Origin: Acidobacteriota bacterium | Lineage (GTDB): Bacteria; Acidobacteriota; UBA890; WLXD01 | Assembly: GCA_963666215.2 (NCBI GenBank) | Contig: CAXWPL010000002.1 | Location: 128,001 to 192,000, forward strand | DNA: 64,000 nucleotides | Direction: 5' to 3' | Part shown: positions 765 to 2,036 of the stretch, piece by piece | Position numbering within the stretch: position 1 is the first letter of the stretch | Layout: every line of letters begins with the position of its first letter | The notes under the pieces: model-generated | The model's database searches: none | Seen by the model: the letters and a program-made list of their open reading frames with translations, nothing else | Told to the model about the DNA's origin: nothing | Translations under genes and position numbers: made by a program

Positions 765-1265
765 ATGCGTAAGCTCTGTCTTGCCCTGGCCGTGGCCGCG
801 ATTCTGGTCGCCATTCCAGGTAACGCCTCTACGTTCGTCGCACTGCCCGAGGACGAGCTCGTCGGCGGAGCCGAAGCGATCGTTCAGGGCAAAGTCGTCA
901 ACCAGTCGAGCTTCTGGAGCGAGTCGGGACGCATCATCGTCACCGAAGCCACGGTCCGCGTGCGTGTCGGTGACTTCAGAGTCGAGGCGCCAGGCTTTCC
1001 CAGCTTCAACCCAGGCGAGCGCGTAATTCTGTTCCTGAGCCGCGCCGAGGACGGTACGCGCCGGGCCCACGGTTACCAGCAGGGCCACTTCGAGGTCGTT
1101 GTCCGCCGCGATGGCGTTCGGCTCGCTGTGCCGCGCATCGAAGAGGGCACACGCCTCGTCACGCGCGATGGCCGTGTGCTCCCGGAGCCGCGCAGCCTGC
1201 CGCTGAACGAGTTCAAACGCTCCGTCCGCCGCATCGCCGCCGAAACCGGCGGCCCGCGCCGCTAG
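765..1265 (+). CDS. Secreted protein, TIMP-like/NTR OB-fold candidate
   Basis: Sec signal MRKLCLALAVAAILVAIPGNA; strong RBS; AEAIVQGKVV and FNPGERVILFL motifs. The fold assignment is inference. Confidence 0.7.
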   Translation: MRKLCLALAVAAILVAIPGNASTFVALPEDELVGGAEAIVQGKVVNQSSFWSESGRIIVTEATVRVRVGDFRVEAPGFPSFNPGERVILFLSRAEDGTRRAHGYQQGHFEVVVRRDGVRLAVPRIEEGTRLVTRDGRVLPEPRSLPLNEFKRSVRRIAAETGGPRR

Positions 1266-1280
1266 CAGGAGGACGAGACG

Positions 1281-2036
1281 ATGAAACGAATATCGAGCTC
1301 TAAGATCCTCCTGGGCGCCCTCGCAATCTCGCTCGTGGCCACGAGTATCTCAGCCTATGTGATCCTGAAGCCGCGTCGCACATGGAAGAAACCGCCAACC
1401 GTCATCGTCGACAACAGCGGCCAGGCCAGCATTGACGACCCTGGCGGGCAAAAGGACCACGGCCGTGACGAAACGATCATGGCTATCAACTCGGCTTGGA
1501 ACGGCGCCGTCGCAGGAGTCGTGAACGCGGTACCAGGCCCCGTGGATGGCGTGTGGGCACTCGGCGACGGCACGCCGATGCTTAGCTTCGAGGACCCATC
1601 AGGTGCTTGCACCGGCAACTGCCTGGCGGCGACCTTCACCGGCTTCTTCACTGTCGGCAGGGGCCCGAAGCGCATCGTCGACGCCGACATCGTCACGAAC
1701 GCCAACTTCCAATGGACGTCAGAGACCGAGCCGGACGGTTGCAGCGATGAGTTCTTCATCGAGGGTGTGCACGTGCACGAAGTTGGGCACGTCCTCGGCT
1801 TCGACCACTCCAACGTCTCGGGCGCCACGATGTTTCCGTCGGTCTCGTTGTGCAACAACGGTCCGGCCGACCTCTCACAGGACGACATCGACGGCATCCT
1901 CGACCTCTATGGCGACGGCGACGGAGGCAACGGCGGCGGCTGCGAGCTCGCTCCGAAGGGCGCCTCCTGCAACATCAACGATGACTGCTGCTCCGGCAAG
2001 TGCCGTGGTCCGAGCAGCAACAAGAGCTGCAAGTAA
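1281..2036 (+). CDS. Matrixin (M10/MMP-like) zinc metalloprotease with C-terminal Cys-rich domain
   Basis: Signal peptide; HEVGHVLGFDHS (HExxHxxGxxH); Met-turn ATMFP; DDIDGI terminal helix; AGGAGG RBS. Confidence 0.9.
   Translation: MKRISSSKILLGALAISLVATSISAYVILKPRRTWKKPPTVIVDNSGQASIDDPGGQKDHGRDETIMAINSAWNGAVAGVVNAVPGPVDGVWALGDGTPMLSFEDPSGACTGNCLAATFTGFFTVGRGPKRIVDADIVTNANFQWTSETEPDGCSDEFFIEGVHVHEVGHVLGFDHSNVSGATMFPSVSLCNNGPADLSQDDIDGILDLYGDGDGGNGGGCELAPKGASCNINDDCCSGKCRGPSSNKSCK

Follow-up and report, generated by a model that had tools for sequence, protein, structure and literature searches.

The serralysin inhibitors Inh, APRin and SmaPI (MEROPS I38) are co-encoded with an M10 protease, whose active site is entered by their N-terminal segment or trunk; they are eight-stranded barrels of another fold than the one described below, and their targets are the serralysins (M10B). 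These inhibitors are also mentioned in a study on the Listeria monocytogenes Mtz-Tim pair (PMC8235301), in which the gene of a metzincin is followed by that of a lipoprotein, Tim, with a Phyre2-predicted TIMP fold, the pair being conserved across many bacteria. The same study states that Mtz cleaves Tim around 50 residues in, that the fragment acts on cell-wall sensitivity, and that its authors found no earlier record of bacterial TIMP-like structures. The potempins (PMC9890683) are lipoprotein inhibitors of the KLIKK proteases, of OB (oligonucleotide/oligosaccharide-binding) fold or eight-stranded, encoded by upstream open reading frames (ORFs); among them PotA, a 98-residue outer-membrane lipoprotein whose ORF is co-transcribed with the protease, specifically inhibits the MMP-like karilysin of Tannerella forsythia via loops in a 'bilobal' mechanism. 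The TIMPs proper are treated as an animal family (PMC4860685). Here we describe a two-gene secreted operon at positions 765-2036 of a 64,000-nucleotide stretch of an Acidobacteriota genome (hereafter the window; assembly GCA_963666215.2, contig CAXWPL010000002.1, positions 128,001 to 192,000), in which the gene of a matrixin-type zinc protease is preceded by that of a Cys-free protein with a predicted NTR-module (TIMP) fold. The family of the upstream protein occurs only beside matrixin-like proteases or fused to their N-terminus, and it is probably a latency or inhibitor module of bacterial matrixins.

With the animal TIMPs (MEROPS I35; 1uea, 3cki, 2j0t, 3ma2) the family would share the NTR fold, namely an OB barrel with two helices, a short one at the N-terminus and a long one at the C-terminus; the structural alignments reach Z scores of 8.0-10.3 over 115-124 residues, with mature residue 1 placed on TIMP residue 1. 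Secretion, a predicted free N-terminus left by signal peptidase, a matrixin target and a predicted placement of the N-terminal segment on the catalytic helix would be further points of likeness. Unlike the TIMPs, these proteins show no detectable sequence similarity to that family, have neither Cys1, the Cys-x-Cys motif nor disulfides, begin with Ser-Thr-Phe, lack the C-terminal subdomain, and are bacterial proteins encoded in an operon with their target or fused to it as its N-terminal domain. As in Mtz-Tim, a secreted bacterial metzincin is genetically paired with a protein of predicted TIMP-like fold; however, whereas Tim is a lipoprotein encoded after its protease, the partner in the window is soluble, is encoded first and has its fold from +1 onwards, a distinction drawn from the published description of Tim only. 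The upstream co-oriented ORF, the small OB-fold barrel and the MMP-like protease downstream recall potempin A and karilysin, but there is no lipobox Cys at +1 (PGNA/STF, the slash marking the predicted cut) and the predicted contact is made through the N-terminus, not by loops alone. Unlike the case of the I38 inhibitors, the window protein and its relatives have no Pfam match of that kind. Thus, in being soluble, Cys-free, of predicted NTR fold from +1, and encoded first or fused, the family differs from Mtz-Tim, the potempins and the serralysin inhibitors alike. No paper on it was found in a literature search that mostly covered journals outside subscription.

The gene pair and its linkage to matrixins

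The operon comprises two ORFs on the same strand, at 765-1265 (166 amino acids) and 1281-2036 (251 amino acids), with an intergenic gap of 15 nucleotides. An earlier account of the stretch made from its letters alone (the sequence-only reading) had proposed two adjacent genes each with its own ribosome-binding site and signal peptide, and the layout is indeed as it described:

751-759, + strand: Shine-Dalgarno-like GGAGGGAGG, 5 nucleotides ahead of the upstream-gene ATG, read from the sequence
765-827, + strand: signal peptide of the NTR-like protein (residues 1-21, ending PGNA before S), from the n/h/c-region pattern and the family alignment
828-1265, + strand: mature Cys-free protein of predicted NTR/TIMP fold (residues 22-166) with the stop, N-terminus Ser-Thr-Phe-Val-Ala-Leu, from an AlphaFold 2 (AF2) model and structural matches
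949-950, + strand: junction of a 57-nucleotide in-frame deletion, from the DNA alignment with a paralogue and the protein alignment
1267-1273, + strand: Shine-Dalgarno-like AGGAGGA, 7 nucleotides ahead of the protease ATG, read from the sequence
1281-1355, + strand: protease signal peptide (residues 1-25, ending SISA before Y), from the sequence pattern and homologue conservation
1356-1922, + strand: matrixin (M10) catalytic domain without a prodomain (residues 26-214), from PF00413 and PDB matches
1776-1808, + strand: zinc-binding motif HEVGHVLGFDH (H166-H176), followed by Ser177, from the motif and invariant columns
1830-1832, + strand: Met-turn methionine M184 in ATMFP, T183 and M184 being invariant in homologues
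1923-2036, + strand: Gly-rich linker and six-cysteine tail C-x6-C-x6-CC-x3-C-x9-C with the stop, read from the sequence

The upstream family is tied to matrixins by gene order. We collected 33 loci from species-representative genomes, of which 31 are Thermoanaerobaculia or Acidobacteriota/Acidobacteria and two Woeseiaceae by record title. The family is present there in 36 copies, alongside 34 protease homologues. A protease ORF starts on the same strand within -58 to +32 nucleotides downstream for 34 of the 36 copies, while the other two (L003 and L033) end at contig ends. When all ORFs of at least 100 amino acids in these loci were clustered, only the partner and the protease (and their antisense shadows) proved to be shared, the next cluster being present in seven loci. 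The partner diverges faster than the protease (mean p-distance 0.51 vs 0.36), and the distances of the two are correlated (r 0.79), which we do not count as co-evolution because it is expected of neighbours that are inherited together.

Beyond adjacency, the two components also occur in a single polypeptide. A word-based search had yielded just one longer fused relative (P0200, discussed below), and it was a six-frame genome search and a HMMER library that revealed the fusions. PF00413 lies behind the NTR-like domain in three of the 12 longer proteins scanned (P0110, P0140 and P0177); in P0140, for instance, a linker separates the domain from FVLLSPARTW, the motif with which the mature protease of the window starts. 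A profile of 86 members found matches in 145 of 301 genomes sampled from the phylum, or in 142 of 298 when three unpublished ones are set aside, and many of the matches lie in long frames. From these matches 20 further loci were inspected, 10 with matches in long frames and 10 with matches in short ones: every one is tied to a protein with an HExxHxxGxxH motif, the domain being encoded directly upstream in 10, fused N-terminally in one ORF in nine, and distributed over two overlapping ORFs in one. The linkage of homologues to matrixins, on which the sequence-only reading had made its proposal depend, was thus found in 34 of 36 copies and 20 of 20 further loci.

In P0200 itself (440 amino acids, with a PF00413 match) the NTR-like domain begins only at residue 283, preceded by an internal stretch that resembles a signal peptide. 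This may represent a protease followed by its partner, or a read-through, rather than a case of an internal domain.

The product of the downstream gene is an intact zinc protease of the matrixin type, without a prodomain. PF00413 (Peptidase_M10) matches its residues 132-211 (E value 1.3e-14; 54.8 bits against a cut-off of 24), and its top PDB sequence matches are the catalytic domains of MMP-1, MMP-8 and MMP-13 (E value 1.8e-8). It displays the motif HEVGHVLGFDH-S (166-177), the Met-turn ATMFP (M184) and a DDIDGILDLYG helix; across 35 aligned homologues the three His, the Glu, T183, M184 and the cysteines 110, 114, 154 and 191 are invariant. The cysteine switch (PRCG/PRCGxPD) is absent from the protein, there is no room for a prodomain, and the start of the catalytic domain comes directly after the signal peptide. 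In the same 35 sequences, P31, R33 and W35 of the post-signal motif Y-V-x-L-x-P-x-R-x-W are invariant and Y26 is nearly so, as are S24 and A25 at the predicted cleavage site. These observations bear out the claim of a matrixin in which YVILKPRRTW follows straight after the signal peptide and no cysteine-switch propeptide is present. The six-cysteine tail has a knottin-like spacing and is common to 10 of the 34 homologous proteases, three others having a different extension of ~100 amino acids; in Pfam it returned nothing beyond a weak, chance-level match to Toxin_18 (E value 0.79).

One marine-sediment metatranscriptome run contains two 151-nucleotide contigs lying over the protease gene at 1433-1724, with 4 and 2 differences, and none over the partner gene. 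Since such libraries can contain DNA, these contigs do not show transcription; at most they hint at transcription of the protease of a close relative.

The genes flanking the pair lie on the opposite strand and are unrelated. A consensus scan of 400-2500 for sigma-70-like promoters and intrinsic terminators, uninformative in itself, returned 0 sites of either.

N-terminus and predicted fold of the upstream protein

Searches of Pfam, NCBIfam and the PDB sequences gave no match for the upstream protein. A word-indexed search recovered 50 relatives, nearly all of 180-195 amino acids and without names or domains, while an exhaustive HMMER search recovered 871 cluster representatives at E values of at most 1e-3, 76 of them at 1e-10 or below. 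With this number of representatives and a presence in 145 of 301 genomes of the phylum, the family is a large one for which there is no Pfam or NCBIfam model.

Both proteins of the operon open with a basic n-region followed by a hydrophobic stretch and a small-x-Ala end (PGNA/STF and SISA/YVI, respectively). The cleavage sites were predicted from the sequence pattern together with the statistics of 200 family members aligned to the profile. The position preceding the start of the domain is Ala in 172 of the 200; at +1 there is Ser in 130, Thr in 42 and Ala in 12 (S/T in 172, S/T/A in 184), at +2 Thr in 127 and Val in 29, and at +3 Phe in 121. In 176 of them the residues ahead of +1 number 15-34, matching a signal peptide in length. 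The Ala at -1, the Ser or Thr at +1 and the leader of signal-peptide length together suggest that the fold starts exactly at the signal-peptidase cut, an AxA-type site, in agreement with the cleavage that had been anticipated for the window protein. The domain start is the same in split and fused forms, as seen in P0140 and P0177 and in the fused copies of the source genome, which start with TTY[IV]M.

The window protein was modelled with AF2 at a predicted local distance difference test (pLDDT) of 78.4; it lacks a segment found in its homologues (see below). Comparison of this model with 48,161 representative chains, made without Foldseek, placed the NtA domain of agrin (Z 8.8), N-TIMP-3 (Z 8.6) and the NTR domain of PCOLCE (Z 8.0) as the top three; the N-TIMP-3 chain, taken from its complex with TACE, aligned at residues 1..121 to residues 22..162 of the model, and the TIMP rows for this model have Z scores of 8.6 and 6.8. 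A full-length paralogue from the same genome, modelled from an 86-row alignment, reached a pLDDT of 95.3 and a predicted template modelling score (pTM) of 0.86. In the comparison with the same 48,161 chains, NTR modules fill its first 12 places, with NtA leading (Z 10.7), followed by others such as N-TIMP-3 (Z 10.3, 117 of 121 residues aligned, model residue 22 on chain residue 1), the C345C domains of C3/C4/C5 (Z 8.0-8.6), PCOLCE (8.5) and TIMP-1 (8.0). The first generic OB fold, RPA32, comes at rank 13 with a Z of 6.6, then the NTR domain of meteorin at 6.5, the other OB folds being at or below 6.5.

When the paralogue was compared with the best 999 chains of a Foldseek search, all 50 rows listed were NTR modules, including NtA (Z 11.6), TIMP-1 (9.9), TIMP-2 (8.7), C3/C4/C5 (about 8-8.7) and PCOLCE (8.5), and the ranking by Foldseek itself agrees. 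All TIMP rows place the predicted mature Ser, residue 22 of the model, on residue 1 of the TIMP, and sequence identities in the structural alignments are 7-15%. The TIMP alignments end at chain residues 121-144 and the protein consists of one domain of 145-164 residues; hence, the second, C-terminal subdomain of the TIMPs is absent. PotA is neither among the listed structural matches nor among the hits of the PDB sequence searches. A language-model look-up found unnamed bacterial clusters to be nearest (0.97-0.98); the nearest named clusters, whose scores of below 0.9 are leads only, were a bacterial cluster with PF00965 on 19% of its members (0.88), NtA (0.84), nematode TIMP/NTR (0.83) and NTR (0.80). 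Taken together, the models make a solid case for an NTR-module fold of the upstream protein, a Cys-free member of a large family, and the NTR/TIMP fold looked for in the sequence-only reading is what both models point to.

At the level of sequence, a kinship to TIMP, NTR, NtA, the potempins or Inh was sought in PDB, Pfam and NCBIfam and with PF00965, and nothing meaningful emerged. No TIMP or NTR chain of the PDB sequence set is found at an E value of 10 or less, be it with the single sequence or with the 86-sequence profile. PF00965 has no match in the window protein, in the 86 relatives (E value up to 1) or across the source genome (E value up to 10). There is likewise no Pfam match to PF01759 (NTR), whose six conserved cysteines are absent, the mature window protein being Cys-free. 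The sequence-only reading had offered an ungapped 24-residue alignment of the mature N-terminus with TIMP-1, with four identities by its own count; since PDB, Pfam and NCBIfam give no TIMP or NTR sequence match, this alignment has to be discarded as evidence.

The predicted complex and a possible latency mechanism

We modelled the complex of the window protease (26-214) with the same-genome full-length paralogue (22-185) and zinc, the paralogue being used in place of the window copy because the latter is without a barrel strand and models less well. The interaction score ipSAE was 0.85, 0.85 and 0.87 in three runs, against 0.00 for the best of three controls, with the pLDDT of the partner at or above 89 and at least 94% of the contacts shared between runs. 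The mark applied to this score is reached by 116 of 157 solved complexes and by 2 of 215 mismatched pairs, and holds roughly when user alignments and a ligand are supplied. On the partner the predicted interface comprises residues 22-27 (STFVAL), 52, 54-58, 83-84, 86, 89-97, 114, 119, 122-124 and 144-155, and on the protease 29, 92-95, 106-125, V163, H166, E167, H170, 174-176, 178, 180, 185-190, 192 and 195. The most confident pairs set T23 on V163, H166, E167 and 114-117, and F24 on 113-115 and 186-188. The predicted pose has Ser-Thr-Phe resting on the helix with the catalytic His and Glu, on the edge strand and on the S1' wall. A passage on the TIMP mechanism in PMC9890683 serves for comparison.

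In MMPs, the N-terminal segment of the TIMPs likewise follows both the edge strand and the S1' wall. The interaction foreseen by the sequence-only reading is thus predicted, with the N-terminal segment in the active-site cleft, for the window protease with the full-length paralogue in place of the window's own upstream protein.

From these predictions we infer a possible sequence of events. Both proteins would be exported by Sec, and signal peptidase would free the conserved Ser/Thr-Thr-Phe N-terminus of the NTR-like protein. The N-terminal segment, together with three or four loops of the barrel, may then occupy the protease's active-site cleft, the segment being placed against the His166/Glu167 helix, the edge strand 113-117 and the S1' wall 186-188, like the first five residues of TIMPs in MMPs. 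The enzyme would stay latent until its partner is removed. In the fused relatives the NTR-like domain would act as a prodomain, and in the window as a detachable prodomain or inhibitor. The earlier proposal of a Cys-free TIMP-like inhibitor or trans-acting prodomain for the neighbouring protease is consistent with this scheme, and the predicted fold, the cleavage site, the predicted interaction and the linkage of homologues all run in its favour.

Several points weigh against a role of the family in latency or inhibition. The mechanism is predicted at every step. No relation to TIMP, NTR or NtA can be detected in sequence, the E values of Foldseek are weak (1.3e-3 at best), and the cysteines that tether the TIMP N-terminus are missing. 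Distant members of the family start otherwise, with Val at +2 in 29 of 200 and Ala at +1 in 12 of 200. Many NTR modules, such as agrin NtA, complement C345C and PCOLCE, are no protease inhibitors. The complex was built with the full-length paralogue instead of the deleted window copy, which models at a pLDDT of only 78.4 and is without the invariant G84, and the calibration of the score excluded user alignments and an accompanying ligand. Moreover, because TIMP-MMP complexes are abundant among solved structures, a passing score may mean likeness and not binding, i.e., the predictor may reproduce the TIMP-MMP pose from its memory of such complexes.

If the predicted binding mode is true, the family would offer a disulfide-free TIMP scaffold that can be produced in bacteria, it would explain how bacterial matrixins without a prodomain are restrained, and the origin of the MMP-TIMP pair would become testable. 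In this regard, it is conceivable, if improbable, that the bacterial Cys-free family shares a true but very remote homology with the animal TIMP/NTR module, such that the pair is an ancient bacterial invention, the fused forms are zymogens, and animals came by the pair through inheritance or acquisition and did not invent TIMPs de novo. Under such a scenario the fused zymogens would be kept latent by an N-terminus made by signal peptidase and sitting on the zinc, an 'N-terminal amine switch' in place of the cysteine switch.

The deleted window copy, its paralogues and other readings

Of the 50 relatives, 29 were aligned with the window copy, and every one of them has 19 residues that the window copy is without. 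At the DNA level this corresponds to a clean 57-nucleotide in-frame deletion relative to the same-genome paralogue, which in paralogue numbering removes about residues 64-85, namely around half of strand beta2, the turn, strand beta3 and a Gly-Gly that contains G84, the sole invariant column of the 86-sequence alignment. Contigs of three runs from three studies cover 700-2100 with 0 differences and 0 gaps, one of the runs possibly being the source of the window; since all three carry the identical form, the deletion is no one-off assembly error. The deleted copy keeps the reading frame, the ribosome-binding site, the signal peptide and the identical N-terminal STFVAL, as well as about 38 of the 41 predicted contact residues, with 83, 84 and perhaps 86 affected (as counted from the interface list and the alignments). 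The loss of a barrel strand means that the protein may be weakened; hence, the window's own copy is an atypical and possibly weakened member of the family.

The deletion went unmentioned in the sequence-only reading.

Six copies of the family are encoded by the source genome (4.65 Mb in 5 contigs, 91.7% complete), the first being the deleted one of the window and the second the full-length paralogue, which lies on contig 3 and in its mature part is identical to P0002. The latter belongs to a paralogous pair in reversed order (contig 3:312263-315811; L034 719-1411 and 1498-2055), in which a protease-like gene that has QEVGH for HEVGH and retains the six-Cys tail is followed by the intact full-length NTR-like gene. 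A stop 11 codons before the conserved Tyr leaves this protease at most 9 codons from a GTG start, and it is therefore without a signal peptide. The genome thus has an intact protease with a truncated partner in the window, as against an intact partner with a dead-looking protease on contig 3. That the contig 3 paralogue serves the protease of the window in trans is a speculation with which the predicted complex is compatible.

It is quite possible, if on the doubtful side, that the upstream gene of the window is a decaying relic, inactivated by the 57-nucleotide deletion, with its protease being unregulated or under the control of the contig 3 paralogue. Residues present in 29 of 29 aligned homologues, including the Gly-Gly, are lost, and the confidence of the model falls from 95.3 in the paralogue to 78.4 in the window copy; moreover, the protease adjacent to the paralogue looks dead (QEVGH, no signal peptide), and it is the complex of the window protease with this paralogue that passes. 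However, decay sits poorly with an intact frame, ribosome-binding site and signal peptide, with an identical STFVAL, with the retention of ~38 of 41 predicted contact residues and with NTR modules still being the best structural matches of the deleted protein; furthermore, the allele is unchanged in contigs of three studies, one of them perhaps the window's source.

Two other readings concern the family as a whole. The NTR-like domain might be a dedicated accessory and not a lasting inhibitor, which we consider unlikely. It would then be either a folding chaperone, of the intramolecular prodomain type but supplied in trans, or a module for an exosite or for substrate targeting; the latter would be akin to the NTR domain of PCOLCE, an enhancer of an astacin protease. 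The N-terminal fusion ahead of the catalytic domain is the usual place of folding prodomains, the best structural matches include non-inhibitors (NtA with Z 11.6, C3/C4/C5 with about 8-8.7, PCOLCE with 8.5), and the partner evolves faster than the protease (p-distance 0.51 vs 0.36), all of which would suit such a role. Yet the predicted pose sets the N-terminal segment on the catalytic helix and the S1' wall, which would be needless for an exosite module, and it is precisely at the signal-peptidase site that the N-terminus is conserved. The accessory role also overlaps with a latency or inhibitor module, because chaperone prodomains are usually inhibitors too. That the NTR-like protein is a substrate or effector processed and released by the protease, as in Listeria, is very unlikely: although Mtz-Tim is the only published bacterial pair of a metzincin and a TIMP-like protein that we found (PMC8235301) and docking at the active site is also expected of a substrate, the window's family has no lipobox and no N-terminal anchor region to cleave, its domain starting at +1, the gene order is opposite to that in Listeria, with the partner first, and the fused forms make the partner an N-terminal domain of the protease.

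The remaining four copies of the source genome include fused forms. Three NTR-like/matrixin-like fusions lie in tandem at contig 2:383710-387466 (L036, L037 and L040), sharing the mature start TTY[IV]M and a HELGHTLGLGH motif; two of them are single ORFs of 451 and 450 amino acids, and the third is split into ORFs of 326 and 105 amino acids, which may be due to a frameshift. In the last copy, at contig 2:223154-223615 (L038 1201-3077), the NTR-like gene overlaps the start of a gene for a 365-amino-acid matrixin-like protein, which shows a weak protease likeness (E value 9.8e-6) and has no HExxH.

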